Source of the DNA: Squalus acanthias
Taxonomy: Eukaryota
Assembly: GCA_030390025.1 (NCBI GenBank)
Contig: CM059446.1
Location: forward strand, 20,522,001-20,586,000
Reading direction: 5' to 3'
DNA: 64,000 nt
Part shown: piece after piece, positions 4,121-40,752 of the stretch
Layout: the number at the start of each line of letters is the position of its first letter
Numbering within the stretch: position 1 is the stretch's first letter
Notes under the pieces: model-generated
What the model saw: the letters and a program-made list of their open reading frames with translations, nothing else
The model's database searches: none
What the model was told of the DNA's origin: nothing
Position numbers and translations under genes: made by a program

Positions 4121-4602
4121 TTGACCACGCTCGATCAGCTCCGATGGACGGGTCACATCGTCCGCATGCCCGATACGAGACTCCCAAAACAAGCGCTCTG
4201 CTCGGAGCTCCGACACGGCAAGAGAGCCCCAGGTGGGCAGAGGAAACGCTTCAAGGACACCCTCAAAGCCTCCTTGAAAAAGTGCAACATCCCCACCGAC
4301 ACCTGGGAATCCCTGGCCCAAGACCGCACAAAGTGGAGAAGCATCCGGGAAGGCGCCGAACACCTCGAGTCTCTTCGCCGGGAGCAAGCGGAAGCCAAGC
4401 GCAAACAGCGGAAGGAGCGCATGTCAACCCAAGCACCCCCACCCCACCCGCCCCTTCAACCACCGTCTGCCCCACCTGTGACAGAGACTGTAGGTCCCGC
4501 ATTGGACTCATCAGTCACCTGAGAACTCATTTTTAGTGTGGAAGCAAGTCATCCTCGGTTCCGAGGGACTGCCTAAGAAGAAGAAGAAGAAGAAGAATAA
4601 GA
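4121..4602 (+). mobile_element. 5'-truncated RTE-clade LINE with 13-bp TSD
   Basis: QLRWTGHIVRMPDTRLPKQ...CPTCDRDCRSRIGLISHLRTH RTE C-terminus; (AAG)n tail; ATGCCTCCAAGCT at 4108-4120 and 4603-4615. Confidence 0.9.
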
Positions 4603-6018: not shown

Positions 6019-6874
6019 AGACAGAAATATGCAATCTCTGGAAGGACAAAATCTATGATTGGCACTGCTGGGTATTTTCTCACAGTTCAAGTGGACATAG
6101 TGCAAAAGGTTCACACACCTGCCTTTACACTGTACTGAAATCCTGGTCGCAATACTAAGACAATATTCTATGACCAAAAGTTAAAGTTCATGCAGTTTCC
6201 TTTTCTCTCTTAGCTGCAACTAGATCTTATTTAATTTCCTGAGCAAATCTAATGGCCGGGAAATCAAATCAATGCTGCACTTAGTTAACTGGAAATAAGG
6301 ACCAAACAGAAACAAACTACAGCTGAACATTCCAATTCTATATCCTAACTACACATTCCCTCCATAAAATGACACAGACTTGTGTTGAAAGCTGCACACT
6401 TGGCATTTTAAATTGTGCTAAGACGACAGCAATGCGGCCCCACCCCACCTCCCATCCCCACGGAACGTTACTTTCTCTTTCACAAGAGAACTTGGGAGTT
6501 GTGACGAGCAACTGGTGAAACTAAATGAATTTACTAAATGCTGGTAATATAGGCTGGAGGGAAGTCTCTCGTTGTCGAGGGGTTTCGTTCTATAGCATAC
6601 ATGGAAATCTTCACACAGAACATAATAGCATAGCATGGAGCTGTACTGCCAGGTAACAAACTTATTATCTCACTGCTTGTACTGGGTTCTATTTGTAGTT
6701 GTATTTGTAGCTCGTGCATATCTTCAGTTCATCGGTACTGATATTTTAATAAATGTACTATTTACGGGGATAGAGCGGGGGAATTGGACTGACTGGATTG
6801 CTCTACAGAGAGCCGGCACGGACTGGATGGGCCGAATGGCCTCCTTCTGTGCCGTTATGACTCCATGACTTATA

Positions 6875-10129: not shown

Positions 10130-10720
10130 AGAGAGAGAGGGGGCCCAGGGGCGGGTTACCCACCTGACAACAGGCCGCCATCGCCAGAGCAACGGCCGCA
10201 GCCTCCCGCCTCCTGGCGCCGCCATCCCTCCCTGCCAGGACCCCGTCCAGCCGCCCGTCCTTAACACCGCCTTCAACAAAAAAAAAACACCACCCACCCG
10301 TCACAAAACAAACACCAACCACAATATATCAAGCCATCCCAATCTCAACATTTATTCGGAAAAAAAACCCCCCATCAATAAACATTTAAAAATCAGGCAC
10401 GTCAGAGACGACTGGCTATAAAGGCCCCCCCTTTTGCAGGACAGTGGGGAGAAAAAAAAAACTGGTTTGCAAAGAGCACGGGGGGAAAAACAAAAGCAAA
10501 AATAATGCAAGACGCCTTTGGTAAATTTGGATTGTTTTCACACGCGTGAGTCACCTCCGTTGGATTTTTTGGGGAAATAGGGGTCGGGCGGGATTGCAAT
10601 GTGTTTTTTTTATGCACGGTGTGTGTGTGTGTCTGTGTGTGAGGGAGAGATGCTGAGGGCGGGCGCGCGCCCCGCCCCGGCCGGCTCGCGCATCAGCACC
10701 GGGCTCTCGCCATTCACTCA
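10130..10720. promoter_or_regulatory. CpG-rich, probably bidirectional promoter shared by NFU1 (-) and the PAQR3-like gene (+)
   Basis: Local CpG enrichment; GC boxes near 10149, 10586, 10657; TGAGTCA at 10547-10553; TATAAAG at 10417-10423; lies between two divergent genes. Confidence 0.6.
10164..10225 (-). CDS. NFU1: Probable NFU1 coding exon 1 (MAAPGGGRLRPLLWRWRPVVR, mitochondrial presequence)
   Basis: ATG in good context (GGGATGG) inside CpG-rich DNA; donor AG|GTGGGT; 62 nt ending phase 2 on Arg21, the layout I recall for human NFU1 exon 1; Arg-rich, no acidic residues; same orientation downstream of AAK1 as in human. Confidence 0.65.
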
Positions 10721-10898
10721 CTCACTCACTCATTCATTCAGAAATTCTGGGACGCTGAGAAAGATTTTGCTACAGAGTGTTCTTTTTGGGGTGGGAGGGG
10801 GAAGTAACTCCTCCAGTTTTGACACTGGGAATCCAGATACCGTAGTTTCATTTTGTTTTTGTCTTTGCAAGGGGAATGAGCTGCAGCTTAATCTTAAA

Positions 10899-13460: not shown

Positions 13461-15374
13461 GATGGAAGAGTACACACTAAAGTCAGATTTTATCTATTAT
13501 TTACCGAACATGCTTGTCAGACTATATTTATTCCTCATTTCTCACTAGAATTGCCAGCTGTCCATTTTTTGAGCAGTCATGCCCTTTTATATAATGTAAT
13601 GTAAATGCCGTGTGGGATTTCTGCATTTCTGGGGGTGTTTTCGGGGGCGGGGGCGGAGTTTGTCCCATTTTTGGCACTTTTTTATTTGTTCAGCATTATG
13701 GCGTATAGATTAAAATATCAAACCAAACCCAAACAAACCATTCCAGTCATTACAAAACCATCATGCCTTCGAAATGAAGTTCAGCACCACGAGCAAGGAG
13801 GGGGCAACTGGTCCTGGCTATAAAAATATAACAAAATATATATAAATAGAGCCTTAATAAATCCCATATGCTGGAACCACGGACCCGGGAGAATGCTGCC
13901 ATATTATATATAGAAGCAAAGGGAAAAAACTAACAAGAAAATATAATACCAATCCCGAGCAACTACTGTGAATTTTTTTGTGGATAATCAGGGGCCCAGT
14001 TAATGGGATTACTGGATAATCAGGATGTAATTCAATGCAGCAATTTAAAACCAAGGCTGGAATACATAGTACTCAGAACATAGTATCTATTTAAATCTCA
14101 AATAGATTAAATAAACGAGCAAATCCAATCTTTACAAAACTTGAAGGTACAGGTAAGGAGATCACTCACTGCCTTTACTGATGGATTGTGGCAGCTCTCC
14201 CTTATTTTACAAATCGTATCCAATTTTAGGTGTTGAAGAGGACTTTAAATGTAGGCAAATCCAGATTCATTTTAAGTTTTCCCAGTTCTACTGTTGCTAA
14301 TCAGTACTTAAGTGCCGACAGAGGTTCCTGTTGTCTGATTTGTGCTAATCCTCATCTTGTGACTCGACCATAATCCAATCAAAAATTTCAGACCGGTCCG
14401 GGTGATGGTGCCAGCCATTCTGTACTTGTGCAGAGTTGATGAGCATCCCATACCATAGAGACCACGGTTTGCAAGGATTGTGACTCTTCTGTGGGTCAGG
14501 CAAGAGATGAAGTTAAAACTCCTGGACTACCTCATCAACAACAACAACAGCAAAGTGCACTTCTGTAATGCTTTTAACGTAGCAAAATGTCCATGGCGCT
14601 TTACCAGAGCGTAATCAGACAAAAATCGACACTTCGTACTTCTGTGCTTGAAGCAGAGGTTGAACAATGGAGTATTGTTATTCCAACAGTGAGCAAGACC
14701 TCAAAACTTGTGAGTGATCTTCATGAATATACTGTTTAAAGAACAGTGAGATGAAAATATACTGTTGCAAAACTATTTCATTTTTGCGCTATTATATATA
14801 ATTTGTTTTCTCCTTGGGCGCTCCATGAAAGCACGGAAGCGAGTTCCTGCGATGTGTTGGGATGTATTGAACAGGAAGGGCATTAGATGATGATGTGGCA
14901 GCTAATTTCAGTAATGGGAGTGGGGAGGGAGAATATAATCGGACAGGAGGCAATAAAATCAGGAATGGATATTGAACAGCATCAAAGTTACATTTGTACT
15001 GCAGCTATCAGACTGAGAACAGTAGCTGCCGTATCCGTTCCAACCAGGCAGTAACCCTTTTACACTGCCGAGCTGGAACAGCAGTTGTCCTGCCCAAGGG
15101 AGAGTTCCGTACTTGCATGGTTACATTCACAGAGCTCCCCCTGTGCGGTTAGTATTTAAATGTTTAGAGGGCATAGGCGGGAACCTCCGCACTCTCTTAA
15201 CATTTCGATTAACTGCAGGTAGGTTTAAGAAAAGTCCAATGGACCCCCCCCCCCCCCTCTGCTTTTTAAACCTCGTTTGAAACCTCACTAAAATTACAGT
15301 CCCTGCGGTGTCAGCCCTAGGCAGTGTGAGGCTACCTGCTCCAGGGAATCGCACCCTCCTTCTCTCTGGAAACA

Positions 15375-15915: not shown

Positions 15916-16873
15916 ATACTTTAAGGTTTGTGGATTTTTTACTGCTGCAAAGTAGAAACCAGTTTTCAGTCACACTAGAAGTTGCACCATAACATACATC
16001 TTTTCTGTTTACTGTGGAGCATCCTTTAAAATTAAAATAACATTATTTTTGTTTCATGTTAAGCCTCCCCTGTGGAGTGATAGCTCAGGGACAGTCAGCA
16101 GCTGCTGGGTATATTCCGATTGTGTATCCACAGTAGTATTATCATGATGGCCTTTAAAAATAATTATGATCGGTCCCATGTATTGTTCCAGAAAGGTGTG
16201 CTTTGTTTCATTGTACAGTCGTAGAATCCTTTAAGCCTCACCACACGAAGGTTCACAAGTGGCTCAGATAAATGTAGGATTTGGATAGCCTTATAAGGCA
16301 ATACAGGGCTTGAAATCAAGGCTATATAATCAATAGATGGCACAAGTCCTTGGTTTGCCAATGGAAATTCAAAAGTATGTGTCCGGCACTGTTGTGTACA
16401 CTCGTGTTTCATGAAACATTGCAAACAATGTTTTGTGCTTTGTGGGACAGTGCACGTGCCACAGCTTGTGAATATGTTCCAATACCTATGTCATTAGAAT
16501 TCTAATGAAGTGTAAACACTCTAGTGCAGCTGATAGATTTTATCCTGCCAAAAGTGGGTTTTGTCTGGAGAGAGCTTAATGAATAATATATTAATGCTGA
16601 AATGGGAGTTTGGTTACAGGTCTCGCGCTAGTGGTGGGGGCAATTTGAAGTGTTTGAATAAAGACCATCATGGAAGAATCCTTTTGCACAGTTCTGAAAC
16701 TTGATGTTTTGTTCATCGTGTACTGGTATGCTAAAATGAGCCTAATGACAGCACTTTCATGTTCCAGTTATGATCTGGGAGATTAGTCTTAGTTTTGAGC
16801 AGAGTAATGGTCCTGTTCTGCATGATGAAAATAACCTGGTTTTTCCTCCTTAGATTTAGGTTGTCAAAACAAG

Positions 16874-17058
16874 ATGACTCACAATATCCTAAAGAGTTTG
16901 CATCGAGTTGAACTTGGTGGATACAACTACTGGCCACTCTTTACACAAATTGGAATTCGCCTTTACAGCTATGAAGAAATCCCGACCTTTTTAAAGGGCA
17001 ATCCTTACATCACTGACGGATACAGGGCCTATTTACCGTCAAGTTTGTGCATCAGAAG
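16874..17058 (+). CDS. PAQR3: PAQR3-like, coding exon 1 (MTHNILKSLHRVELGGYNYWP...NPYITDGYRAYLPSSLCIR)
   Basis: PAQR3 N-terminal motifs GIRLY.YE.IP..LK.NPYITDGYRAYL; acceptor TTTTCCTCCTTAG ~20 nt upstream of the ATG implies an upstream non-coding exon; donor AG|GTACGT; 185 nt. Confidence 0.92.
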
Positions 17059-17449
17059 GTACGTTTGCAGAGCCACGACTGATAGACGTATGATGAAACA
17101 AGTACAGATTAAATCTGAGTCTGTGAAAGAATTAAGGGTTAAAGTTGACAAGAAATTCATTTGACAAAGGCTTACTAATGTTAATATCAGTTTCTTTAAT
17201 TCCTTGTCCTCTCATTGTTAGCTATCGTCACCTACACCTTCAGTGGCCCTCCAAAGCAAGCTGCTGTTATGTGTCTTCCTCCTACTGCCTTTCTGAATGT
17301 CCACTATGTTCTTTGGGATCAACAACTTCTTCAATCTCTGACCCACCCTCTCCCAACCCATCAGTGACTCTATGGCTGCCCATCCTCTACTTCCGCTGTC
17401 TCTTAAACAAAGCCTTCTCCATTTGACCATCTCATTCTGGATGGAGACA

Positions 17450-17830
17450 TGGCGTACCGTGGCTGCAGTGTGTACCATCTACAAGATGCACTGCAGCAAC
17501 TCACCAAGGCTTCTTCGGCAGCGCCTCCCAAACCCGCGACCTCTTCCACCTAGAAGGACAAGGGCAGCAGGCGCATGGGAACACCACCACCTCCAAGTTC
17601 CCCTCCAAGTCACATGCCATCCTGACTTAGAAGTATATCGACCGATCCTTCATCGTTGCTGGGTCAAAATCCTGGAACTCCCTCCCTAACAGCACTGTGG
17701 GAGTACCTTCACCACACGGACTGCAGCGGTTCAAGAAGGCGGCTCACCACCACCTTCTCAAGGGCAATTAGGGATGAGCAATAAATGCTGGCCTTGCCAG
17801 CGACGCCCACATCCCTTGAATGAATTAAAA
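17450..17830 (+). mobile_element. CR1-superfamily LINE 3' end (second family); related copies at 18210-18367(-), 44607-44930(+), 53020-53165(-)
   Basis: Recurring TCCTGGAACTCCCTCCCTAACAGC (SWNSLPNS) ...GCAATAAATGCTGGCCTTGCCAGCG 3' end. Confidence 0.75.
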
Positions 17831-18991
17831 GAAAGTGGAGACAACAACTGGATGTCAGCTAAAGGCCAGACAGTTGTGCATTTGAACCCGATACCGTGAG
17901 TCTGAGCTGGTAATCTAAACTGACAACTCAGTACAGTGCTACCAGATTCTTGCACTGCTGGATGAGATGTTAAATTGAGATTCTCCCCATCTATCATAGT
18001 GGTTCAGGTAAACGATTCCTTGGCACTATACAAAGAAAAACAGGGAGTATCATTAGTCCTTCAGCCAGTACCCTACCACCTGGTTATTAATCTCATTGCT
18101 GTTTGTGAAATCTTGCTGTATGCAAAAATGCCTCTACCTTTCTCTACACAAGGCAATGCATTTCAAAATTATTGACTATTCAAAGTGCTTGGGGACGTTT
18201 CCAAGAAACGCCGATATATTTCCAAGTCAGGATGGTGTGTGACTTGGAGGTGGTGGTGTTCCCATGCATCTGCTGCCCTTGTCCTTCTAGGTGGAAGAGG
18301 TCGCGGGTTTGGGAGGTGCTGCCGAAGCAGCCTTGGCGAGTTGTTGCAGTGCATCTTGTAGATGGTATACCCTCCACCCTTAACCCCACCATCCACGTTT
18401 CTAGTCCTGGACTTTAGAGCTCTATCCTAATGCTCAAATCTCTACCCCCTGCAAAACACCAGTACCGTCCTAGATCGAGCAGAGTTCTTATAAAAGGGAA
18501 GGATCCTACAGTAAACCAAATTGGTTAAAACTAAGGCTATTTCTTTCCCTTCTGTCCATCAGTGATACAAAACCTCATCTGCAGTGTGTGAGCCCGGCCA
18601 CTGAATCGCACCAGAATATTCAGCTGTGCACAGTAATCATTACCGAGCCTGTTCCTGCCCTTGCCCAGCATCCACATATGTGCAACAGGGGTCACTGGGT
18701 TGTCAGCAGGAATGCAAACCCTGACTGTGTTTCCCATGGTCTCTGAAGGCAGGCTGCTGTATTTTCACTGCGGCCTGGCTAACGTTTGCTCACTCGGGGT
18801 CGCCACAAGGGAGTTACAATAATTTGTTTTCCCAAATGACATTTATTTGAGAATGCGGGTGATTTGAATACAAAGTATCTTTCGTGTCCACATTATGCAT
18901 CTATCTAATCTAAATCTTGTGGCGTTCGAATGTAACAAGCACGTACTTGACTTACATTGTTGTGTTTTCGATCTGCTCCTATTGAAAACAG

Positions 18992-19154
18992 CCTCTTTGT
19001 TTTGTCCAACGAGAGTGTGAATATATGGAGCCACTTGCTGGGGTTTTTCTTGTTCTTCCTCATGGGTCTACATGACACTTGCTTCCTGCTACCGTCGTCG
19101 AACAGCACCAGGGATGACTACATTGTTTTCATTACTTTTGGCTTTTGTTTCCAG
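18992..19154 (+). CDS. PAQR3: PAQR3-like, coding exon 2 (SLFVLSNESVNIWSHLLG...FGFCFQ)
   Basis: PAQR ExxNxxxH-type motif NESVNIWSH; AG/GTAAGC boundaries; 163 nt, phase 2 to 0. Confidence 0.95.
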
Positions 19155-19434
19155 GTAAGCATATGGTTAAAAAAGGTAAAAAGTAAGGGCTGAGGTGGGG
19201 AGGGTGGTGGAAGAAATCGCACGTTGGCACACCAATGCCACGTTTAGATTCCTGATCTTGGGCACACAGCTGTGGGCAGTGCTGAATGGAGGCCACCTGT
19301 CCCATGGAGGGAAGTCGAATGGGGCTGACTTCTTGCGCCTCCCTGAAGCTATTGTTCTGATTGTTGGGTGGTTTCAGTATTGATCCTCATGTAGTGCCAA
19401 CGTACAACTCTGCATCTAGTGCCAACGCACCAGC

Positions 19435-19952
19435 TGTGGAGTATTGAGTCCAATTCTGGGCACCACACCTTTAGGGAGAATCTCAAAGCCTTGGAGAGCC
19501 TGCAGAGGAGAGTTACTAGAACGACACCAGAGACTTCAGTTATGTGGCGTGACTAGAGAAGATGGGATTGTTCTCCTTGGAGCAGAGAAGGTTAAGGGGA
19601 GATTTAATAGAGGTGCTCAAAATTATGAGGGGTTTTGATAGAGTAGATAGAGGGAAAAAAAATCTACTGACGGGTGGGTCAGTAACCAGAGGCCACAGAT
19701 TTAAGATAATTGGCAAAAGAACTTGAGGATTTTCTTTTTTACACAGTGAGTTGTTGTGTTCTGGAATGTGCTGCCTGAAAGGGCGGTGGAAGCTGATTCA
19801 ATAGTAACTTTCAAAAGGCAATTGGTTGTATACTTGAAAAGGAAACATTTGTGGAAAGAGCAGGGGGAGCAGGACTAATTGGAGAGCTCTTTCAAAGAGC
19901 CGGCACAGGCACGATGGGCCGAATGGCCTCCTTCTGTGCTGTAAGATTCTAT
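19435..19952 (+). mobile_element. Degenerate CR1 3' end
   Basis: CR1 ORF2 C-terminal homology and 3' tail GGGCCGAATGGCCTCCTTCTGTGCTGTAAGATTCTATG. Confidence 0.75.
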
Positions 19953-20184
19953 GAGCGTCAACATTGTGTTCAAATTCAGTCTTCTATAGCAAGAGCTACT
20001 AGCTAGGTTTCAAATTAGAAGAACCAAGTCCCAGTTAATAAATTATACTGCATGTGATGAGAAATATTGATGTTTATGGGCAGCATGTCATTGCCAGCAG
20101 ACTGTGTGCTGGGGGACTGCAGTCCAAAGGAGAGAGAGAGAGAAAGCTTCACTCTGACTTTGCCAGAATCCACAGAGCAATATA

Positions 20185-20603
20185 CAGGAAACTTTCGTTT
20201 ATCCGGCATCGACGGGACCGGCGTGGTGCCGGTTTATCGAAAGTACCGGATAACGGAGAGTTATATCTACCGAGGCTATTTTTAACAAAGAGACTCCAGG
20301 CAGCGCGGGAGAATCAACTCCTGCTACTGCAGTGTTTCGGACTTCCGACAGCGCCAGGAGGCCGAGTAGTGGCACTTTTGAAAAGTACCCCTACTGACTA
20401 AATCGGCGTTCGCGGACTCGGACTCGGGATCGGCAACATTGCCGGTTATTTGAGAGGAGTTTTCGGAGCACTCGGCGTTCGCGGAGACTCGACTGCGACT
20501 CGGCAACATTGCCGGTTATTTGAGAGGAGTTTTCGGAGGATGATTTTTGCCGGTTAAGCGAGAATTCTGGATATTTGGGTGCCGGATAAACGAAAGTTTC
20601 CTG
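20185..20603. mobile_element. Non-autonomous Tc1/mariner (pogo/Tigger-like) MITE, 419 bp
   Basis: Perfect 24-bp TIRs CAGGAAACTTTCGTTTATCCGGCA (20185-20208 / 20580-20603) flanked by TA on both sides; no transposase ORF. Confidence 0.9.
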
Positions 20604-20955
20604 TAGTTTGAATTTAAATCCATTATTTACATTTAACTACAATTGCATTACTTGCCCAACGTAGTAAATGAGTTCCGGGATATCATTTACATCCCATATA
20701 TTGGCACCGACGATATAACTAACTCGGGGGTCACTCGAGCCAAAATCGATTAAATCAGCACACGGGGGGTACAAGTGTTTTCCCGCCGATTATCTAATTC
20801 CAATTTTGTTAAAAATTCGCTTCTAGGCCCTAATCAACAGATCTTTGAAAGCGAGCGAGCCTGTGATCATCCTCCTTTGTCTATCTCGGGATATTGTGGG
20901 CTGAGCTTGACATCTAGCATTGTGTAACTGTTGATTGGTTTGGTGTCCTCCGCAG

Positions 20956-21111
20956 TTCTGCATGCTCTGCTCAGCGGGCTACCACCTCTTCTGCTGCCAC
21001 CACTCCGAGAAAACCAGCCAACAGTGGCTTGCCCTCGACTATGCTGGCGTCTCGGTAGGAATGCTGGGATGTTATGTTCCAGGAGTCTTTTATGCCTTTT
21101 ACTGTGCTGAG
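20956..21111 (+). CDS. PAQR3: PAQR3-like, coding exon 3 (FCMLCSAGYHLFCCHHSEK...LDYAG...FYAFYCAE)
   Basis: SxxxH and DYAG PAQR motifs; CAG/GTGAGT boundaries; 156 nt, phase 0-0. Confidence 0.95.
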
Positions 21112-21984
21112 GTGAGTAGCTTTCTTTTTAATTAAAAAGAAAAGTCACTTTTGCTGAATTTAAAAAGTATTCAACATAATTATCATAAGCTCTCAGTAAG
21201 TAAATGGGATATATAGAAATTAGACCTTAGTGGGACTGATGGTACACAGACCTCTCGCCACTGGGACCTTGATTCAAATTCAGCACAGACTGGTGAGTCT
21301 CTCTGTCTGATAACTGTTAAAAAGTTCGATGTGAAATTACTTTTGCACAATCTTCACGGGCGTAAGCCCACAACAGAAACTACCCCTTAATTTACAAAAA
21401 GGAGACTTGCGTGTATAGAACGTCTTGTCATTCCTCTCAGACATGCCTCCCAAGTGCTTGACACAAGAGTTGAATTACTGTGAGGTGCGCTGGTCATGGT
21501 CATGTAGGCATGGTGAAATTGGCACAAAATTGGATCCAGCCCAAAATGGTCGGGTAAGATTTACAGCGAGTCATGGGCTAGACTGAGACATGAGATTAGC
21601 AATAGGAATAAACCGGCAGCATTTGTGCTTCACACCACTTGCACATACTCGTCCGCCACAGTTACCCAGTTCAGGGTAGGGCATATCTGAGCTATCCAGT
21701 GGAACTGAGGATAGTTAAGGATCTAAGTACCTCCAATTTCCCTTTTTGTATAATTATTCTCGTACTCTAAACCACTCACTAACCAATGCGTGAAACAAAT
21801 TAAAACTATTCAAAATCACCCCTTTTAAGGACAACTTACACTTGTATTACACATAGTAGAATGTTTCAGAGTGCTGGTCAAGGGAGGGAGGGTGAGAGAG
21901 ACACTGAGCAAGGCAGCTGATCAAGGGTGGGCTAATTACAGGGTGTTTGTCAACTGGAGAAAATCTTCAGAAATCTGAAACAAG

Positions 21985-22447
21985 ACAGACTTGCATTTCT
22001 ATAGCGCCTTTCACGACCTCAGTGCGTCGCAAAGCGTTTTACAGCCAATGAAATACTTTTTTTGAAGTGTAGTCACTGTTGTAATGTGGGAAACGCGGCA
22101 GCCAATTTGCGCACAGCAAGCTGCCACAAAACAGTCATGTGATACTGACCAGATAATCTGTTTTTTTAGTGATGTTGATTGAGGATAAATGTTGGCGAGG
22201 GCACCTTGGAGAACTCCCCTGCTCTTCTTTGAAATAGTGCCACGGGATCTTTTGCGTTCACCCGAGAGCAGATGGGGCTTCGGTTTAATGTCCCATCTGA
22301 AAGACGGCACCTCCGACAGTGCAGCACTCCCTCAGTACTGCACTGGAGTGTCAGCCTAGATTTTTGTGCTGGAGTCTGGAGTGGGACTTGAACCCACAAC
22401 CTTCTGACTCGGCCGAGGGTGCTGCCCACTGAGCCACGGCTGACACT
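21985..22447 (-). mobile_element. Full-length Deu-domain SINE
   Basis: Reverse complement of the 333-800 family. Confidence 0.85.
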
Positions 22448-22819
22448 GAATTAAATGACACACACCATCCAAAGAATCAAATCCGCGTGATTTTGCCTGC
22501 TTAAGTTGTGAAGCTATTGGTCAAAGTTCTGTCACAGATAAATGTGTACTGATCTGATTCATTATAGTAGTGGCATTATTAAATGATATTACCATTGGAA
22601 AGTGATATTGGCAGGTAAAGCGCTGTTTAAAGTTATTTTAGTTTTTCCCAATCTCTCATGAAATGTTAATGCCTGGTGGATATTCGTAATGTTAGACATA
22701 AGCAAACAGATTTGAAAATGTGTCATTGATAAATGGCATCGTAGCATTTAATAATGAGTGAAATAGCCCCTAGTATTAACAGTGTAATTATGTCTCTTTT
22801 TTCCCCTTTCTCAAAGCAG

Positions 22820-23017
22820 TATTGGAGACAAGTGTACCTTATAACCGTGCTGGCCATGATTTTTGTGATGTTCCTGACACAAATCCACCCGCAGTATGCC
22901 TCCCAGCATTGCCACAAGCTGCGTATTCTGCTCTTCTGTTTCATTGCTGCTTATGGATTAATCCCCACAGTTCACTGGATATTTCAGAATGGAGGTATTG
23001 GGGAGCCAGTTGTTAAG
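22820..23017 (+). CDS. PAQR3: PAQR3-like, coding exon 4 (YWRQVYLITVLAM...GGIGEPVVK)
   Basis: YWRQVYLITVLAMI matches PAQR3; CAG/GTAGGA boundaries; 198 nt, phase 0-0. Confidence 0.95.
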
Positions 23018-23896
23018 GTAGGAAGGATTCTACAGCTCCAGTTTTCGTGATTCTGTGGAAATCTATACTATGCGATTACATGCTGTAGCTGCTTTTGCTT
23101 CTGATTATTTATTGGGACTTGCCTAAAGGTTAATTCATTGCCCAGCGTGGTTTGAGCCAGAGAGACCAGGAAGGTTCGAGATTCAGTCCATGTTCTGACC
23201 CGAGTTGGCTGGGCTCTCAGCCAGGTTACAATTCACATGTGCTGGAGAGAGAACAATGTCGCCAGGTTTTGGACTCTAGATTGCTCGGAGGTGTGGACGG
23301 GGAGCAAGGACACAGGACGGGGCTTCCACATGGTCCGACCTCCTGTTTACACTTTCAGTCTCAGCCCGACCATGGTACCAAAATCCTGGCAGTGCCTGGG
23401 AACTGTATCCCAGTGCGAGTCGTTGCTTTCAGGAGAGGGAGGAGGAAAATTGCAAGGAGAAAGGAAAAATGACCAACAATAATATGCTTGGAGACATTCT
23501 GAATGTATTCGTTAAATAATGTAGGATGTTAACTTCTAGTGAATTATGGGCAACTGAGAGCGATTACCAGGTCATTATCACGGGTCCCAAGTGGCTCCAC
23601 GAACAAAGTGAAGCTCAAGGTTAGATTCCAGCCTGTAAATAACTCTCTCTTTTACAATTGATCTTATCAATTTATATAAAGGTTTCGAAAGCACACATTG
23701 CCCTGCAGATACCACAATCCAGATGTCCCGTTGCAAAGTGTCAAAAGTATGAAAAACGAGGGAAAAAAAAGGCATGCTTTATTTTCCTGAACTAGAGCCG
23801 GAAATTTACAAGAACCTGGCACTCTGCAAACTTCTTTCCCCAAAACAGAAATGAAGCTCAGGACCTATTTAAACCCCTTGGCAGCCTTAAGGGGAT

Positions 23897-24210
23897 CACA
23901 GAATCCCCACAGTGCAGATAGAGGCCATTTCGGCCCATCGAGCCTGCACCGACACATATCCCACCCTATCCCCGTAACCCCACGTATTTAATCCCCCTAA
24001 CACTAAGGGTCAATTTATCATAGCCAAATCAACCTAACCCGCACATCTTTGGACTGTGGGAGGAAACTGGAGCACCCGAAGGAAACCCAAGGGAACACGG
24101 TGGCATAGTGGTTAGCACTGTTGCCTCACAGCGCCAGGGACCCGGTTTCGAATCCGGCCTCGGGTGACTGTCTGTGTGGAGTTTGCACATTCTCCCCGTG
24201 TCTGCGTGGG
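23897..24210. mobile_element. HE1-like V-SINE with inverted 5' segment
   Basis: 3' half on minus (23897-24089); tRNA head plus start of V domain on plus (24096-24210); GGGAT on both flanks. Confidence 0.8.
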
Positions 24211-27200
24211 ATAGGCCAGGTTAGCAACTAAACATCACAGTTCTTCATCAGACCCCATGAGCAGTGCAATTGGAGGCCACCTTGTATAAAAATACGTTTC
24301 AATTTTCTGCCAGGGTTTCATCCCATTTTGTGTTGCCTAAGTTTGGGTCATATCTTTAACATCTAATGATTTTTATGCCGATTGTGTTATAATCACAGCA
24401 AGCTTATCAAGAAAAATTAGATTGATTCCCTGGAGATGTTAGATTGCGTATAAATATAGGATTGGTTCCTAGGCAGTTATGTTATTGAGGAGTTTAGGAA
24501 ACACCAGAAGCCTTAAACAAAACTCAAATCATTGGAGAATTCATGTCAATCCTGAGAGGACTGGTTTGAAGTCGCTCCGACATATCTGTTCGTGTATGTT
24601 GTAGAAGTAGCTTTAATCTTAATTTTATTTCTTATAGTGAGTCTTCCATAATCATATCAGCAAGGTTTTGATCAAAGGTTGACTGTATGCACTCATGAAC
24701 TTTACATTGTGGATTGAAGGAGGTGGTGGATGTGTTAATGGTCACCTTTTGTTGCGTTTGGTTTGCTGTGCAATTTTGCTTTGAGGATATTGGATAGCAA
24801 TACCAACTGACTCCTGAATAAAACGTGCCCTTTGTGTTCGTCTTTAATCTATTTTCCTTTGAATGTGTCAATAACATGGGTAGGCAAGACAAGTATTTGA
24901 ACAATGGACATGTTAGTATGGAAAATCTGCAACAAAGCAAAACTCCTGCAGTAGAATAAAACTGCATGTCATTGCTTTATCTCTGCTCTTTTTTTCCTTT
25001 CCCACTTCCTGTGCTATTTCTGAACTGTAATTCCTTGGATATACAGAGCCATTCCAGATGTGCCCTGCCAAAGGTCCCCCTCTCGCTGCCTACTACTTGT
25101 AGTGAGTGATTCCAACCCGTCCTCTTGGCACTAGTCCTGCATTGGTGGCCAAAGTAAGTGGGATCTCTTCTGGTCCAAGTAATGGGGCAGTGTGTTTTTT
25201 TTTTTTTAACTCTCCGAAGAGACTGAGCCCACGTTGAATTGCTGGGATTTGGGTTCGATGGCACATCACAGTGATAGGCTGTGTGGCTGCAAGCAGTAAA
25301 ATGTTGCCTGGCCCTCGTAGATGAGGGTTTCTGTGAACGCCCACCTGAGAGCCCAATGGTGATGTTTGGGTTCAAAGATCAAGTACAAATGAAGGATTTT
25401 ATGGATCTGGTCAGGAGGGCTCCTGCCCAAATTGAGTGCATAATAATCCACAGCGATGTAGCTCTGCCAGCGAGTTACCAGAACCAATGAGTTACAGCTG
25501 TAGAACCAGGCAAGGCTAGAATAAACATGGTGAAAATGATGAGCTTTCTGTCTTATAACTCCTACTGTGCTGACATATACCGTACAAGTGACCAGTTCGC
25601 ACAATTTGGATCAGATTTTTTTTATTCCAGAAGGTTAAAGGAATGAAGTTAGTTGACTTGTGCTTAAGCTCAGATTCTTATTTCAGCCGTGAGTAATTTT
25701 TGTCGACACACATGCCTGAGTCAGAAAATGTCTAATTTGTAGCTATCACCCTTGAAGGATTGTGAGCTGTCTGCAGTTGGTGATAAGAATGTAAGACTCC
25801 ATTCTTCAGCACCTGCGATATGTGGCTCAGCCTTTCACGTCACATTATGAGAAATTCCCTCTCAACTCCTGTGGTGGTGGGGCATTAGGATTGCTTCATA
25901 AAGGGATGGAGAAGAGAGGCTTTTTGAGGATATGGAATTGTCATTAATTGCCTTGAAGAAACTTAATGGCCACCCAGCCAAGAGTTGAGCCAATCAGTTG
26001 TGGGATAACTGGTATTAAAATCTGTGCAAACAGAAGAATGCTGGCAGCTTTGGGACCGAGCCATTATCCAGGACAAATTTGAAAGAACTGCTGTCCAATA
26101 CCATGCTTGCAGTTTGGTACCAGCAGCCCTATGATTGGAAAGTTCCTCCCACCCATCTTCATCTAACCCCCATCAACATAACTTTCTCTTCCTTTCTCGC
26201 TCATGTGTTTACCTTTTTTTTTCTGTTCTAGATCGAGCCATTGATTAAGAATCTAATCCATATGTTATAGCATGTAAAGCTGTTGGAAATTTTGCCCTGT
26301 CTATCTCCCATTTCAGCCAAGCATTAATGCCGAGAAACTTGCATCTGCTTGGTGCTGAAAGAGGGAAGAGTCCCTGAATCGTTTAGATGAAGCTTCAGCC
26401 GAGCACTTTGCAATAGGTAGCTATAATGCTGCAGAGAGGTCTGTGAAATAGGAAAATGTACAGAAGATCGTCCGTGTATAAGACTTGTGACACTCTGAGA
26501 TTCCCATGTGAATTCCGCATACAAGATCCTAACATCCGCTGCCAGAGATTCAATAGATGGGTAAACAAATTCAGTGACGGTGGATACTTGTGCTTCACGT
26601 TCTGATGCACAGGGAAACTGCGTGATGCCAACACCCACTACAATGAGGACTGCGGTTCAGAATAAGTAATCCCCATCCAATGCAAGAATGATGGGCCAAA
26701 GCCCATCCTAACTAGGACTCTTTTTGAGAAGATCTACTCAAACCGATCAAGCTTCTTTTGAGTAGTCAATGACAATATCAACAGAGGGTCGAGTTTATCC
26801 ATAGAACAATGGAATATTTTGAGGAACCAGCAAGCATTATCATGAGTGTGCGTCCAGATATATGAAGGTGCTATACCAATTGAGGGACCAACCCCTTTGA
26901 GCCTAATAACCAATATCTTACAATCCAGGTTGGTCAGTATGAAATTAGTCCACCTTATGGATGGAGAAAATGGAGCATTGCAACACACGTTTGAGAAAGT
27001 GTCTCTATCCTGTGTTTTTTTTTTACAGATTTTGATTTCTTTCAAAACAATGCAGGATCATTTTTTACTATTCTAAGACATACTGGTGAACTAAGTAGTT
27101 ACATAGTCATGCAACTTGAAAGTTTAATCTCTATTAACACGGGGCTTGCATTTTGTGATTCACCTGTTTGCGTTGGCTACAGGTATTTTGGAGTGGGTGC

Positions 27201-27453
27201 CTCACAGCGGGGAAACTCGGCTTCCAGATGGCATTCTGTATGTCTGAATCCTTTTGTCACCAGGAACATAAGGGTGAGGTGGTGTTCAGTGCCACCAGTG
27301 TGACCTGTTTACTCACTGTTCTGGAATGCGTGTGTACTAGGCAGGGTTTACACTACTAATGTGCTAGAACCTGACCACGTTCACTCTGGGTTAAAACCAT
27401 GATATTTAACTGTGGCATATCGTTGAATTTGTCCCTTCATCCTTTTCTCCTAG

Positions 27454-27544
27454 GTGTTTGCGCCCAGAGTAGGCGTTATGTATCTACTAGCAAGTTTGGC
27501 ATTTCTGTTTTATTACAGTAAAGTACCTGAAAGATACTTTCCTG
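27454..27544 (+). CDS. PAQR3: PAQR3-like, coding exon 5 (VFAPRVGVMYLLASLAFLFYYSKVPERYFP)
   Basis: PERYFPG motif; TAG/GTAAGT boundaries; 91 nt, phase 0 to 1; absent from ORF track. Confidence 0.95.
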
Positions 27545-28059
27545 GTAAGTCTCGCTCTCTCTCGCTCGGTATTTTTAATCTGCTGTATATGAAGAATATA
27601 TTTTGCCCCTCATATTCACTGTAAACTTCTGCCTTTCTGACAACTGGCATTAGAATGAGAAATAATTAAGGCCAATTCAACCTATTGCTTCAAGGGTAAT
27701 GCCTCCGACATACTGGGGTAAACTTTGATCTTCAGCTCTTCCAGCGTAGAGCTTTGCGCACTAGGTGTGCACCCCATGATTTCCAGGCACATGAAGGAGT
27801 ACTGATGACTAGAATCTGCCCCCCCGCCCCCCGCCATGTTGGTACCTGTCATGATACCGTTTCTAGAGCGGGACAAGCAAGCAGTGTGGTTATTTGCTGT
27901 GCATTCAACACTATTCTTGAATGGGGGAAAAGTGGAGCCGCATGTATACACATTCCCACAGCTCTGCTTACTGGCCTCCAAATGCTGGTGTTGAAATTAG
28001 AAAAGAGCCGACCCAGAACTGCCGTACCCCGAGAAAGTCAGCGGCCGCCTTTCCTGGGC

Positions 28060-28280
28060 TCGGGAAGCTGTGGATCGCTGCCTCGGCCCTAAGCTCTGAA
28101 ACTCCCTCCCTAAACCTCTCCGCCTCTCTCTCCTCCTTTAAGACGCTCCTTTAAAAGCTACCTCTTTGACCAAGCTTTTGGTCACCTGTCCTAATATCGC
28201 TTTATGTGGCCCGATATCCGATTTTTGTTTGACGCTCCTGTGAAGTGCCTTGGGGCGCTATATAAATGCAGGTGGTTGTT
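28060..28280 (+). mobile_element. L2-clade 3' end
   Basis: CTCTTTGACCAAGCTTTTGGTCACCTGTCCTAATAT...ATAAATGCAGGTGGTTGTT, same family as 12998-13460. Confidence 0.7.
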
Positions 28281-29744
28281 GGTTGTTTGGCTGGTCCAAG
28301 GTGATTACCCTCATTGGTGTTATGGGGTTCCTCTCCACGTGTAGAAGGCCTGACTGGTAGGTCTTTGTGAAAGTAGAGATCAAACTTATTTTTTCAAAAA
28401 AAATAAAGGATACTTTTTAATAAAGTTATATATTTTTGAAAATGGGATAGGGGAGTCCTTTGAATAAGAAGTATTTGCCCCCTCATCCCCAGACTTTCCT
28501 TCTCCTTCAGGTCCCTTGGTTTAAACAGCTTTTGCTATGTTTCTTTCTCGGTAATAACTGGATCTATGCAAACTTATAAAGTGATTGAAATCCTGGGTAT
28601 AGAATCCCTATGTGAACTGGGACAGCTTCTGATGCGCAATAGTATTTTATTACAGAGTCTGTCTTTACTTCCTGCCATCCCTTGCCCTTTCATGATCAGG
28701 TACACCATAGAACATAATCCAGCTCAGCTTCACTTTATGTCAAGACAGTCTGAATTCCCAGAAGAAACCCACAATCTCTCCCTCATTACAGGCTGCCTTT
28801 GCCCCAGGGTATAATCTTGCTGTGCTGTCCACAGGGAATGGAGTGTTTTTGCAGTGACTATTTTGTTCAGTATTTTTCCACCACTGGGCAGGTGGACTGT
28901 GCCGTGGTACTTCAAGGGATGAAGTGCCCTGTGGTAAGGCTCACCAAAGAAATAACAGTCAAACTACTCTGCCACAAACTCATTTATCGCTTGAAGCTAT
29001 CATCAGTGTCCCCAGTGCAGGCAAGTGAGAGTCTGTGTCAGATTGAGACTATCTTGGAGAATTTTATTTTTACATGGTATTTTGATTCGACACAATTATT
29101 GAAATACTGCACAGTGCCCTCGGGCATTTCCTTTATGAGGAGTAAACTGCAGAGCGCCTTTCCTCCTTGGTGGAAACTTGTGCGCAAATTGGCTGCCACG
29201 TTTCCTACATTACAACAATAATTAACAGTTCAGAAGCACTACATTGGCTGTAAAGCACTTTGGGACGTCCTGAGGTCGTGATAGGTGCTACATAAATGCA
29301 AGTTCTCTCTCTCCTTTCTTTCTTTCTCTCTCTTTCTGTTGCTCTCTCTCGTTCTCCCTTTTTTCCTCTCTTTTCTCTCTCCCCATTTTAATTTTCTTAC
29401 TAGGGATGGGCAATCAATGCCAGCCTTGCCAGCGACACCCACACCCTGAAATGTTTTTTACATTGGGCTTTTACTGCACCTTTTTAAAGCTCGTTGCTTT
29501 ACGAGAGTAAACTTTTAAGAATATTTTATATACTGACACTCCCAAGAGTTCTGCCCATTTCGGAATTACAGATACTCTTCCAATCCCTAAGTGTCGGCAT
29601 AACAAAGGTTGCGTATTTAGAATTTGAACTAATCTTTCTGCATATGTTTTATTGGTTCACTTACTTTTTCCTGTTGAAGCTAATTCTCAGATTCTGTCAC
29701 AAACCCAGTAAAGCACAGGCAGAAGCCAAAGGTACGATCCTGTG

Positions 29745-30635
29745 AGTTCCTTTTAGTGCTCACTAAACTTGGTTATAGGGGGCACAATATTGAAGTTTGC
29801 TGACAGTACAGATGTAGGGAGTTTGGGAAGCAGTGAGGTGGCCTGTAAAAGGCTCAGGAGGACGTGGCCAGGATAGTGGATCGGGCAGGCTGGTGGCAGA
29901 TGCAGTTTATTGTGGTAAAGTGTGAGGTAATGCATATTGGGATGAAAAACTAGGAATGTGAGCACACGTTTAATGGACAGACACTGAAGGGTGTGGATGA
30001 ACAGTGAGACCTAGGGATTCAAATATATAATTCATGGAAAGGGTAAGTGCAGGTAAATAAAACCATAAATAGGTCAACATTTTTTTTTAGTTTTATAAAT
30101 AGGGTCATAGAGTTCAAAAGCAAAGAGGTATAAAGTTTGTACAAGCCAATGGTTAAGCCACAGTATGAGTAGGATGTGCAGTTTTGAGCACTCCATTATA
30201 GAAAGAACGTTAAACCACAGTATGTGTATGGTGTGGATTCTCCAGGATATCGGGCATGAAAAACTTTGCTTATGAGGAGAGACTTGAGATTCTGAGACTA
30301 TGCCCCTGGAGCAGAGAAACCTGAGAGGAGATTAAATGGGGTTTTCAAAAAAATTATTAAACATTTCGATAGGGTGAGTAAGGAAAGGTTTCCTCTACTT
30401 TGGGAGAATCAGTAACGAGGAGTCATCGATCCTCCAATGGGAGTGAGGAGAGAGGCGAGCAGAATTGTCTGTACATAGAGAGATGATAGAGGGAATAGTC
30501 GCAGCAGTGTCTTTTAAGGGAAAAGTGGTTAGATATTTGAAGCTGAGAAAAATACAGGGCTGTGGATAGAGTAAGAAAATGAGATTAGCTAAGAGCTGGC
30601 ACTGGGCCTAAATGCCTCCTCCTGTGCTGTAAACG
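29745..30635 (+). mobile_element. Old CR1 3' fragment
   Basis: AAGTTTGCTGA (KFAD) RT remnant, TGGCAGATGCAGTTT..AAGTGTGAGGTAATGCAT, CR1 tail. Confidence 0.7.
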
Positions 30636-31509
30636 CCCAATATTGAAGTCACACATTAGTCTGGTGACTGGATCAAGGGTTATACATTTGAATTTTAGGC
30701 TTGGTCAACAATCAGCCATCTGTTCTTGGTTGTTCCTAACCCGGCTAGTGGGTGGTTCGCTGCACAGCACCAGAACAGGCCAACTCAGGGAGGAGAACCT
30801 CAAATGGGGAGCACTGCACTTGACTGGCCTCACTCGCTCAGACTTAGCACTGCGGTAAATTGTGCAGTGCGACAAAGGAGAGACACAGTAGCCGTATGTG
30901 ATCAGACACAGACACTCGAACCATGGACCCGTCAAGTAGGATAGTGAGAATTTATACTGATAGTACAACACATACCTTTCCATCAGAGATTCATCAGATT
31001 TATAAAGTATTTTTCTTGCAAAGGAGAATGTGCAGGACAAACTCGTATATTTAATGTAAAATCCAGTTTAGAGTTCAATTATTGGCACGTAATGAATGAA
31101 CCCACCTCCTGGTAGGTCAGCAGTCGGGACGCTACAATTGGTTTGACGTTCTTGACGTGGGGGAGGGAGCAAAACCAAGAAGTGACACTCATGCTAGGTT
31201 CACACAAGAGGACTGGGCCCCTGAGCTAGGTACGAGAGGTCTACTGCCACCTCCGAAGCTATACCCCAACAACGGATAATTGCCTTCAGGAAAGGAGGGG
31301 TAAAGGCAGAAAACTGGCACCGTGTCATACAGACAATGTCTGGTTGAAACATTACCAGTGCTATATTTAGCCGCTAGGTATTTAGGTTTAGCCTTCACAA
31401 CATACAAAATGAGAAATGATGCAGGATTTAGCAACATTTCACTATTTATAACAATGTTTTCTATAATGTCACAGTTGGGTGTATTTATGTTTGGAACTAA
31501 ATCAACATA

Positions 31510-31692
31510 ACAAAAACAGATTATCTGATCTTTATCACATTGCTGTTTGTGGGAGCTTGCTGTGCGCAAATTGGCTGCCGCGTTTTCTACATTACAACAG
31601 TGACTACACTTTAAAAAAAAAAGTACTTAATTGGCTGTAAAGCGCTTTGGGACGTCCGGTGGTCATGAAAAGCGCGGTATAAATGTAAGTCT
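31510..31692 (+). mobile_element. Deu-domain SINE 3' fragment
   Basis: CAGATTATCTG...TTGGCTGTAAAGCGCTTTGGGACGTCC. Confidence 0.8.
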
Positions 31693-31813
31693 TGGGAAGA
31701 GTGAAGCGTTGTGTGTTTGGGTTTAAAAACAGAATATGCATTGTGAAGATGGTTAGTTATTCCTTCCATTTTGTTTTGCTATTTGCATTCTAATCAGAGT
31801 TCTTGTTTTCCAG

Positions 31814-31953
31814 GTGGATACTTGAATTACTTTGGCTGTAGTCACCAATGGTGGCATTTCTTGGTAGTTTTAATGTTCTATTGGTGGCATCAGACTGCTG
31901 TTCACATAATGCATTATAGACATGAGCAGCCATGTCTAAAAATAACAAAGTAA
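31814..31953 (+). CDS. PAQR3: PAQR3-like, last coding exon (GYLNYFGCSHQWWHFLVVLMFYWWHQ...CLKITK*)
   Basis: HxxxH motif (HQWWH); acceptor TTGTTTTCCAG; phase 1; total CDS 185+163+156+198+91+140 = 933 nt, 310 aa, no stops or frameshifts. Confidence 0.95.
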
Positions 31954-38789: not shown

Positions 38790-39991
38790 CTACTTTGAAC
38801 CACTTGTCTGAATATTTACATATCCCTTCCCAGGGAAAGGTGCAGCAGAAAATGGGTCATCATTGTCTATATGCTGGGGTGAATTTGGACATGTAGGTTG
38901 CTCCACATCAGCCATTCCATCAGATTGTAGCGGTCCCAAATTTCCCAAAGCCTGGTTTGGGCAGCTTGTATTTGCTTTATTATTACAATCTGAGTGTTCA
39001 AAATAGCAATTTTGACTAAAAGGATTTAATACAGAAGAAACTTTTGAAGACACTTCAGTTCTCAGATACTTCAAAGAATTAACAGTTTCTGATTTTTCAC
39101 CCAGCAATAGTTCTTGCTGTTCCCTATTTATTTCAGCTTTTTGTCCCACATTGCTGATCTCGCACATCATTCCTTCCCCAGGTGAATGCACATGTTCCTC
39201 TGTCTCATTTGTACTTCCACTCATGAATTTGAAGTGGCATGTTTCTACAGAGGACCTTCCACTTTTCACAGGAACTTTTTCAAAAGGAACCTGACCAAAT
39301 ACATCTGTTTGCACTGAACCAACAGATTGCAAGCATGCACCAAGGCCAGCCTGCAGTGTTTTGCTTCCAAATGGTGCATTTGTGAAAATCTGAGATTCAT
39401 CACCAATTTCAAAATTCATCTTGGGTGTAAATGGTGCTTTTTTAAATACATCTGCTTCCTCACTATCAGCCACATTGTGTGTTTCTGCACATAAATCACC
39501 AGATGTAAAAGGTAGAGTAGTTTCCAAATAACCCACTATGGAGCCTTGCAAGACATCAGTGTCTTGGATGCTGGAAGTAGAATCGGATAACCCCGTTTTA
39601 TATAGCTCATGATCACCTTCTTTAGAAATATCTTGGGCGGGATACTCTCCTTCATCCTCAGATTGGTCATGTAGGTTCAGATCATAATTCTTCAGTTCTG
39701 GATCAGAATCCTGTTTCAAATCAGCAACAGCAGGTGTGAAACTTTTGTGGTCTTCCAGTTTGATTGTCATCTCATCACTTTTACCCTCTTCCTCGTCGCT
39801 GCTGTGAAAAGTCCCTGTCGATGGGGTGAGATCACTTGAATGTTCCTCAGTTATTGGTGCTGATAAACAACGTCCTATAAATTGCACCATTTCTCCACAA
39901 GTCAGTTCAATTCCCTCCTCTGACGGGCATCCCTCGACAGTAGGCAGTGTGCTTTGCTTTACCAGCTTCACTGATACTACACTTTCACAGC
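38790..39991 (-). CDS. AAK1: AAK1 alternative long terminal exon (acidic, BMP2K C-terminal-like tail)
   Basis: Acceptor TTCTATGGTTTTATTTCAG, phase 1; 1202 nt open to TAG; repeated DVFKKAPF, IFTNAPF, DVFGQVPF, DPFSAAPFP motifs and one NPF, typical of NAK-kinase long tails. Confidence 0.85.
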
Positions 39992-40752
39992 CTGAAATAA
40001 AACCATAGAATCGAAAATTGGGAGAGGGGCATTTGAAGAATGAAGTTTTTTGGTGGAAGAAAACACATTTTTTGATGGTGTTCAACATCGTGGATTCAGG
40101 TACAAACAACCTACAGTGCAGTGAACCTACAACAATGGAGGCCTGCTTCTTTCACTCACCAATAAAACTAGAGCTGTGGTGTTATCATGGAACGACAGAG
40201 AACTAAACCAGTAAGGTTTTTTGCAATGATCACAGTTTACTTTAAAAAAAAATCTTGAATAAATCTAAAATGTTCCATGATTCACAAAACTCTGAAAATT
40301 TTGTTCACATCAATAAAGGGAAGTTCAGCCTGCCCGAGACCATCTGTTGGAAATACATATTTTAAAAACATCTACAAGCGAAACTTTCACTCCAGCCTTG
40401 TGAAATGCCCATCACTGCGTTGAGGCAGGAATGGATAAAGATAGGTGTTGAAATCAAACGATCCATTCATTAAACTGCAAGTGATGAACATCACCAGGGA
40501 GCTGGCTCAGATTCAGCTATTTGAAACCAAAACGAAGACTCAAAAGAATGTCCCATGCGAGCTACAAGTTTACTACAAAGCAGTTTGCATGGATGGTATA
40601 AAAAGGAAAACAAAGTTCCATTAGGGGGTTATTCTAAATGTGACTGGCCAGATTCCTTCCTCTACCCAGTGGTTCAGATTAGACTCCTTCATGTACTTGG
40701 CCAGAACTCCATCTCACAGACTTAGTGCTAAAACAAACAAGATCAAAATTAG

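Follow-up and report, generated by a model that had tools for sequence, protein, structure and literature searches.

The window analysed here comprises 64,000 nucleotides of the 3.7-Gb Squalus acanthias genome (C23:20,522,001-20,586,000), and exon positions are given below in window coordinates. Its plus strand carries a gene, termed PAQR3-like in this report, whose six exons (16874-17058, 18992-19154, 20956-21111, 22820-23017, 27454-27544 and 31814-31953) each have AG/GT ends and splice into an open frame of 310 amino acids that ends with TAA at position 31953. The coding exon lengths are 185, 163, 156, 198, 91 and 140 nucleotides. The gene is arranged head-to-head with an NFU1-like gene and converges with an AAK1-like kinase gene. 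A first-pass annotation of this DNA had described an intact six-exon PAQR gene with clean splice sites beside a kinase ending in LLVDQLIDL, and both descriptions are borne out (the kinase end lies on the minus strand, 47116-47021), as is the position of every motif quoted there. The named protein closest to the PAQR3-like product is from a shark and is 99.4% identical.

The conserved start codon at 16874 lies in an exon with an acceptor at 16854 (16854-17058), and its methionine is the residue aligned with the PAQR3 start. This exon encodes Ser32 and, judging from the expected topology, a cytosolic N-terminal domain. An optional coding exon of 43 nucleotides is located upstream (14667-14709, plus strand, phase 1), which is in frame with the 16854 acceptor and agrees with the sawfish orthologue at 14 of 14 residues; its inclusion adds an N-terminal extension of 21 residues and yields an optional form of 331 residues. 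The orthologue models differ in their choice of first exon, with N-terminal extensions being optional. The next exon (18992-19154) spans the first transmembrane helix (TM1) to the start of TM2, and the one after it (20956-21111) encodes Ser122, His126 and Asp144 of the zinc site typical of the CREST proteins. The fourth exon (22817-23017 at its longest) measures 198 nucleotides, or 201 with the upstream acceptor, and encodes the clade-specific Cys199. Its NAGNAG acceptor (22817/22820) adds or drops one Gln; contig pieces start at 22818, and orthologues of both forms exist. TM6 is encoded by the open frame of 27454-27544, in which 30 of 31 residues are those of the sawfish orthologue, and the last coding exon (31814-31953) carries the Gly266 insertion, Cys273, the zinc ligands His275 and His279, and the stop codon.

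Public contigs from two studies, whose runs we presume to be RNA, read through 16854-17056, 18990-19151, 20953-21109 and from 22818 onwards with the introns absent. Among runs that contain this DNA, none is registered as RNA, an outcome that speaks neither for nor against expression. The four-exon join is present in one contig in three of the four runs and in two pieces in the fourth. The PAQR3-like gene is an intact, spliced PAQR3 paralogue, and the possibility of a pseudogene is ruled out by the open frame, the spliced contigs and the near-invariance of the protein. Many SINE and LINE copies occupy the introns, and repeats make up approximately 40% of the three regions compared in this study.

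The 99.4% identical shark orthologue scores 164 bits against the HlyIII profile (PF03006, cut-off 26), and its predicted model consists of seven long helices (predicted local distance difference test score 75, predicted template modelling score 0.75). All eight structure matches with E<=0.001 are AdipoR1 or AdipoR2, at template modelling scores (TM-scores) of 0.72-0.78. Residues Ser122, His126, Asp144, His275 and His279 align with the zinc-site residues of AdipoR1, and thus the three putative zinc-binding His residues pointed out earlier are indeed retained, although zinc binding itself is predicted. A set of three His, one Ser and one Asp defines the CREST active site (PMC13562381). AdipoR1 and AdipoR2 therefore resemble the window protein in their seven-helix fold and in this site, but are only 25-29% identical to it.

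A search of the genome with a full-length orthologue yielded 19 matches, of which 12 fall into two loci of six each, namely the window and C2:129.22-129.23 Mb. The remaining seven are weak (E 4e-5 or worse), leaving these two as the only PAQR3-type loci. The C2 gene is 64% identical to the window copy, and the two have identical lengths for all six exons and intron positions in common. It converges with a kinase, has an annexin beyond that kinase and an ANTXR gene upstream. Two of three C2 kinase exons match BMP2K better than AAK1 (64.3 versus 56.7 bits and 56.6 versus 52.7 bits). On sequence grounds we identify the C2 locus as the canonical PAQR3 beside BMP2K, which is the second copy that had been anticipated from the window. 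Grouping with tetrapod PAQR3 and a place beside BMP2K are both true of the C2 copy and of the window copy neither. The latter is not the sole PAQR3 of the genome, and its own kinase neighbour prefers AAK1 over BMP2K in three of three exons. Between the two copies the proportion of differing synonymous sites is 0.83 and the nonsynonymous divergence (dN) is 0.23; with synonymous sites saturated, the ratio of nonsynonymous to synonymous change (dN/dS) between the paralogues is uninformative.

Among 372 proteins, 38 favour the window copy over the C2 copy by more than 90 bits, and the same 38 carry at least two clade motifs among 443 proteins examined. All are isoforms from sharks, rays, skates, Callorhinchus or the lungfish Protopterus, with identities to the window protein of 96-99% in cartilaginous fish and 85% in lungfish. 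Word-indexed and clustered protein searches found no member in ray-finned fish, coelacanth or tetrapods; the coelacanth fragments recovered are PAQR3 proper. The phrase ‘lost in mammals’ in the first-pass annotation was therefore too narrow, and the copy was likely lost in ray-finned fish as well as in land vertebrates. Two distant matches (P0267 and P0232) are slightly nearer to the window copy than to PAQR3, at 41-47% identity, and are without the clade motifs.

Trees of 45 and 41 rows, hand-chosen from the protein sets and not including PAQR4, unite the chondrichthyan and lungfish proteins of the window type with support of 99/96 and 100/99. Vertebrate PAQR3-type proteins as a whole form a 100/100 clade against invertebrate PAQR3-like proteins, and lamprey joins the PAQR3 clade at 96/89 and 95/86 in the two trees. 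A duplication confined to cartilaginous fish is rejected by the approximately unbiased (AU) test (p-AU 0.0001), in agreement with the lungfish member of the clade. Orthology with teleost paqr3b is also rejected, given that paqr3a and paqr3b both nest inside PAQR3, with paqr3b in the ray-finned clade. The trees accordingly place the split between the window copy and PAQR3 before the divergence of cartilaginous and bony fish.

The two copies have changed at different rates. Over the same six pairs of four genera (pairs that are not independent of one another), there are 42 differences in the window copy and 124 in PAQR3. Within elasmobranchs, PAQR3 has thus changed roughly three times as fast as the window copy. 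The window-type proteins of Heptranchias and Callorhinchus differ at 8 of 308 sites, and those of Heptranchias and lungfish at 48. The earlier description of the gene as diverged is thus apt with regard to PAQR3, from which it differs at 36% of sites, but not within elasmobranchs, where it is the more conserved of the two.

The neighbouring genes place this paralogue in a larger duplicated block. A 62-nucleotide exon with an ATG at 10225 and a GT donor (10164-10225, minus strand) is the putative first coding exon of the NFU1-like gene, whose other exons lie before the window (C23:20,479,241-20,492,912). Five NFU1-like exons on C23, including the one with the CxxC motif, have open frames and splice sites, and an intron of the gene also holds a broken partial copy of the CxxC exon (20,482,778-20,482,686). 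A GC-rich stretch (10225-10800) is located at the start of the first exon, with the PAQR3-like gene running the opposite way. Because the two genes diverge from this stretch, it is possible that they share a two-way promoter. Two tail fragments of LINE reverse transcriptase, in opposite orientation, are present at 4082-4533 and 5319-6086. Farther out, a GFPT-like gene of at least 11 exons with open frames occupies C23:20,367,600-20,444,878. The GFPT-like and NFU1-like genes of C23 are most likely paralogues without a known mammalian counterpart.

The kinase gene enters the window from the other side on the minus strand. Its long last exon (38790-40100, with an approximate start and an open frame of 453 codons from 40151) is acidic and gives a weak match to BMP2K_C (27.5 bits, cut-off 27). 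The last exon of the short isoform (47021-47116) is the one that ends in LLVDQLIDL, and agrees with the C17 kinase introduced below at 27 of 32 positions. Further C-terminal exons (51093-51254 and 52269-52433) and Gln-rich frames (58394-58657 and 63572-63832) extend the gene to 63832, and the kinase domain is found beyond the window (C23:20,595,659-20,653,073), with the C23 kinase exons open. The window kinase can thus end either in the short exon or in a long one of the BMP2K_C type, and counterparts of the long exon are present in the kinases of C17 and C2. The order along C23 is RBP3 (20.194 Mb), ANTXR (20.248-20.280 Mb), GFPT-like, NFU1-like, PAQR, kinase and two annexins. RBP3 adjoins ANTXR and is 340 kb from the PAQR3-like gene; its modules (C23:20,194,491-20,197,416) are divided between a long open frame of 437 codons and another of 617, each with two module starts, and may represent either two genes or a single gene interrupted by a frame break. 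The annexins beyond the kinase (C23:20,725,788-20,807,886) are two four-repeat genes in tandem.

A similar arrangement exists on C17, where a third kinase of the AAK1/BMP2K type is directly followed by NFU1, GFPT and ANTXR (C17:73,304,271-73,630,167). The human 2p13.3 order is ANTXR1, GFPT1, NFU1, AAK1, ANXA4, GMCL1 and SNRNP27 (PMC10090176). The C17 block has this order, and SNRNP27 maps to C17. Its kinase has the same C-terminal motif as that of the window, and the exon tested against human AAK1 scores 65.4 bits for C17 versus 57.3 for the window. Between the C17 kinase and NFU1, no trace of a PAQR gene was found, as the tblastn and blastn matches across the 280 kb searched are repeat-derived or at chance level. 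An additional ANTXR exon at C1563:22,484-22,591, on an unplaced 28-kb contig, is perhaps a missing piece or a second allele of the C17 gene.

These data bear on the proposal, made in the first-pass annotation, that the window holds NFU1 and AAK1 themselves and that the PAQR gene between them is the AAK1-linked ohnologue (a paralogue derived from genome duplication). Consistent with that proposal are the preference of the window kinase for AAK1 over BMP2K in all three exons, the ANTXR-GFPT-NFU1-kinase-annexin order as in human 2p13, the better match of the adjacent C23 annexin to ANXA4 than to ANXA8, and the distance of 3.4 Mb between the C17 annexin and the C17 kinase. However, the same block on C17 includes a kinase exon with 35 of 40 residues identical to human AAK1, compared with 30 of 40 for the window (counted by eye). 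Moreover, SNRNP27 is on C17, RBP3 is beside the window block, and in the skate genome supplement Antxr1, Gfpt1 and Aak1-2 are on a GGA22-type chromosome (PMC10115646). We thus regard the proposal as quite improbable. The C17 block is most likely the true AAK1-NFU1-GFPT1-ANTXR1 block, and the window neighbours, NFU1- and AAK1-type genes as first described, are most likely paralogues of NFU1 and AAK1, as far as sequence and order can tell. Given that the C17 block is the better fit to human 2p13 and is without a PAQR gene, the AAK1-linked PAQR copy would be gone in this shark too. The idea of an ohnologue from an early genome duplication is supported, whereas the idea that the AAK1-linked copy was the one kept is not; the copy that survives is on the RBP3/ANTXRL segment.

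Published gene lists indicate which segment carries the window copy. On chromosome 6 of the duck, as at human 10q11.22, RBP3, ZNF488, ANTXRL and ANXA8 adjoin one another (PMC8690979, PMC8624726), and the lists in those sources name no such GFPT, NFU1, PAQR or kinase gene, with the duck list containing unnamed loci. The C23 segment most likely matches human 10q11 and bird chromosome 6, to judge from these shared markers. In all, the shark genome has three kinases of the AAK1/BMP2K type, three GFPTs and two NFU1s. Paralogous neighbours comprise ANTXR, kinase and annexin on C2 and C23, and ANTXR, GFPT, NFU1 and kinase on C17 and C23, with another GFPT on C3. The close collinearity of C23 and C17 over five to six genes could also have come about independently of genome doubling, if the entire block had long ago been copied segmentally or translocated to the chromosome that carries RBP3. 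We consider this scarcely credible, since C17 has no PAQR gene to copy, the segments belong to one published four-way paralogon (PMC10115646), and the BMP2K/PAQR3/ANTXR/annexin block of C2 and the GFPT of C3 complete the set.

It is highly probable, in our judgement, that an ancestral block was copied by genome duplication and that its PAQR gene was kept on the C23 segment. In this history, a block with the order ANTXR-GFPT-NFU1-PAQR3-Numb-associated kinase (NAK)-annexin would have been present before the duplications. The C2 segment would have retained PAQR3 and BMP2K, the C17 segment would have retained GFPT1, NFU1 and AAK1 while losing its PAQR gene, and the C23 segment of the human 10q11 type would have retained all four inner genes in this shark.

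The skate genome offers a means to assign this event to one of the vertebrate genome duplications, with segment labels carried over to the shark by presumed homology. For this linkage group, the skate supplement labels LER15 and LER34 (GGA6-type) as 1-alpha, LER35 (GGA22) as 1-beta, LER1 as 2-alpha and LER11 (GGA13) as 2-beta (PMC10115646), and the supplement of an amphioxus paper pairs GGA4 and 13 against 6 and 22 (PMC7269912). Skate Antxr1-1, Gfpt1-1 and Aak1-2 are listed on LER35, Paqr3-2 and Bmp2k on LER1, and Aak1-1 on LER34, while Paqr3-1 and Aak1-3 have consecutive gene numbers near Adamts14, Grid1, Anxa11 and Drgx (PMC10115646). DRGX is a human 10q gene. Adamts14, Grid1 and Anxa11 we likewise take to be genes of human 10q. 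Skate Paqr3-1 would then be the orthologue of the window gene, in which case PAQR3 and the window copy would be what remains of the first duplication on the two alpha segments. This is in line with the higher retention on alpha segments and with the position of lamprey in the trees. Skate Paqr3-1 is also listed among 6,887 rows that differ between anterior and posterior pectoral fin, with a log2 change of -1.5 (PMC10115646).

The window copy likely arose in the first vertebrate genome duplication, as the skate segment labels and the position of lamprey suggest, the tree support for a first-round split being 95-96/86-89. The split could instead date to the second duplication, or to a first duplication whose copies were resolved late, once lampreys had branched off. 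Jawed-vertebrate monophyly of the copies is not rejected, and long stems could pull the window clade to the root. Nevertheless, lamprey joins PAQR3 in both trees and the labels in the skate supplement place the two segments in different first-round groups, and we judge a later origin to be improbable.

Published evidence indicates that mammalian PAQR3 resides in the Golgi, binds Raf through its cytosolic N-terminus and loops, anchors Scap/SREBP, and is phosphorylated by AMPK at Thr32 (PMC6970510, PMC13562381, PMC4772855); it is for this mammalian protein that Raf, Scap and ATG14L binding and the Golgi location are known. In six aligned members of the window clade, 32 positions are fixed differently from PAQR3. 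Some of these are ancestral states common to invertebrates, and therefore part of the gap between the copies arose in PAQR3. Novelties of the clade are one residue inserted before the last helix (the extra Gly noted previously, Gly266), Cys in place of the otherwise invariant Trp199 and Ser273, the latter two residues before a zinc ligand, and Gln where the loop that follows helix 2 otherwise has basic residues. Residues 27-75 stay close to PAQR3, and the 27 residues at the N-terminus are strongly different. The position of Thr32 is occupied by Ser in the window and in 12 of 17 orthologue models.

We moderately favour the view that the protein acts as a scaffold in the Golgi much as PAQR3 does, keeps its zinc site, and has partners or a substrate that are partly different. 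By analogy with PAQR3, its cytosolic N-terminus and loops would dock signalling or trafficking partners. His126, His275, His279, Asp144 and Ser122 would hold zinc in a cavity of the AdipoR type and may hydrolyse a membrane lipid, and the fixed changes beside the zinc site and on the cytosolic loops may make partners or substrate partly unlike those of PAQR3. The chief rival holds that the window copy acts above all as a zinc-dependent lipid amide hydrolase on a substrate of its own, the scaffold and AMPK roles of PAQR3 having been given up. All five catalytic-site residues are invariant, and near the cytosolic face Cys has replaced Trp199 and Ser273, two residues that do not vary in any of the other aligned sequences. 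The change of basic loop residues to Gln, the strongly different first 27 residues and the freedom of position 32 to become Asn would also fit a hydrolase. Nonetheless, a 2026 review, in its account of these proteins, ascribes no enzyme activity to PAQR3 and a contested one to PAQR4 (PMC13562381), and residues 27-75 of the partner-binding N-terminus are near those of PAQR3. A mainly enzymatic role is therefore possible but rather unlikely.

Taken together, we would assign a probability of about three in four to the reading that this gene is a PAQR3 paralogue of cartilaginous fish and lungfish, likely from the first duplication, which encodes a predicted PAQR3-like seven-helix Golgi protein with a zinc site. 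Several points weigh against this reading. The spliced contigs cover the first four of six exons, and the RNA nature of the runs is a guess. One C2 kinase exon does not separate AAK1 from BMP2K (90.5 bits for BMP2K versus 91), and the orthology of the kinases is drawn from gene order and from one exon compared with human AAK1. For the two C23 annexins, single exons score best on ANXA6 and ANXA4 rather than ANXA8, and therefore the 10q11 match is uncertain at its right-hand border. That bony fish and tetrapods lack the copy was concluded from searches of protein databases rather than of genomes. A tree that unites all jawed-vertebrate copies, with the split after lamprey, is not rejected (p-AU 0.075 and 0.074), the outgroup branches are long, and the trees are without amphioxus, tunicate or hagfish sequences. 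Finally, the AMPK-site position is Asn in 5 of the 17 orthologue models, and thus AMPK control is probably not essential.

A bolder account combines loss and novelty. The third GFPT, the second NFU1, the PAQR3-like gene and the third AAK1/BMP2K kinase, located between ANTXRL and the annexins, would form a first-duplication block that persists in cartilaginous fish and was deleted as a unit in most bony vertebrates. The PAQR protein would have been neofunctionalised into a zinc lipid hydrolase acting on a substrate of its own, and this would account for its near-invariance from chimaeras to sharks. We hold this to be unlikely.

Parts of this system are already on record. The ‘PAQR3-like’ entries in RefSeq for sharks, rays, Callorhinchus and Protopterus (for example XP_067828744, XP_038638819, XP_042192636, XP_043911664) are orthologues of the window gene in the form of automatic models, and the skate annotation includes two Paqr3 and three Aak1 models. 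Two database labels are at odds with the tree: the Callorhinchus protein is named simply ‘PAQR3’, and a Chiloscyllium entry of UniRef is named ‘IIIb’. Because sharks have two NFU1s and three each of the GFPTs and the AAK1/BMP2K kinases, names assigned automatically (PAQR3, IIIb, AAK1, NFU1) can hit the wrong copy. We found no description of the paralogue or its block in the titles and abstracts of the open-access literature, and one supplement of a 2026 database of jawed-vertebrate ohnologues lists no PAQR3, AAK1 or BMP2K (PMC13450315).

Relative to PAQR3/RKTG of mammals (paqr3a in sharks), the window copy is alike in its six coding exons and their phases, its zinc-site residues and its convergent NAK gene. 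It differs in its separate clade, its place on another paralogous segment, the 32 diagnostic positions, the insertion, Cys199 and Cys273, the Ser or Asn at the AMPK site, its optional N-terminal extensions and its slower change among elasmobranchs. Teleost paqr3b, known from work on zebrafish chd7 mutants (PMC8183419), is also a second PAQR3 gene, but one inside the PAQR3 clade; since teleost 3a and 3b nest there, paqr3b is a younger duplicate and not the window gene. That cartilaginous fish retain ohnologues is already well documented, and the present case is not a new kind of system, as illustrated by 68 differentially retained cases in the skate genome (PMC10115646) and by nanos1 (PMC5932020). 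The genes described here are like those examples in being kept in cartilaginous fish and lost in most bony vertebrates, and unlike them in that four neighbours have been retained side by side and the PAQR gene is also present in lungfish.

The finding fixes the ancestral order of the 2p13/4q21/10q11 paralogon, with NFU1/GFPT and PAQR3 in one block. It also brings a conserved PAQR3 paralogue, apparently not described before, into a family with unsettled enzymatic roles. Comparison with PAQR3 marks the residues that have been fixed differently over more than 400 million years, and thus provides a natural test of scaffold versus enzyme roles.

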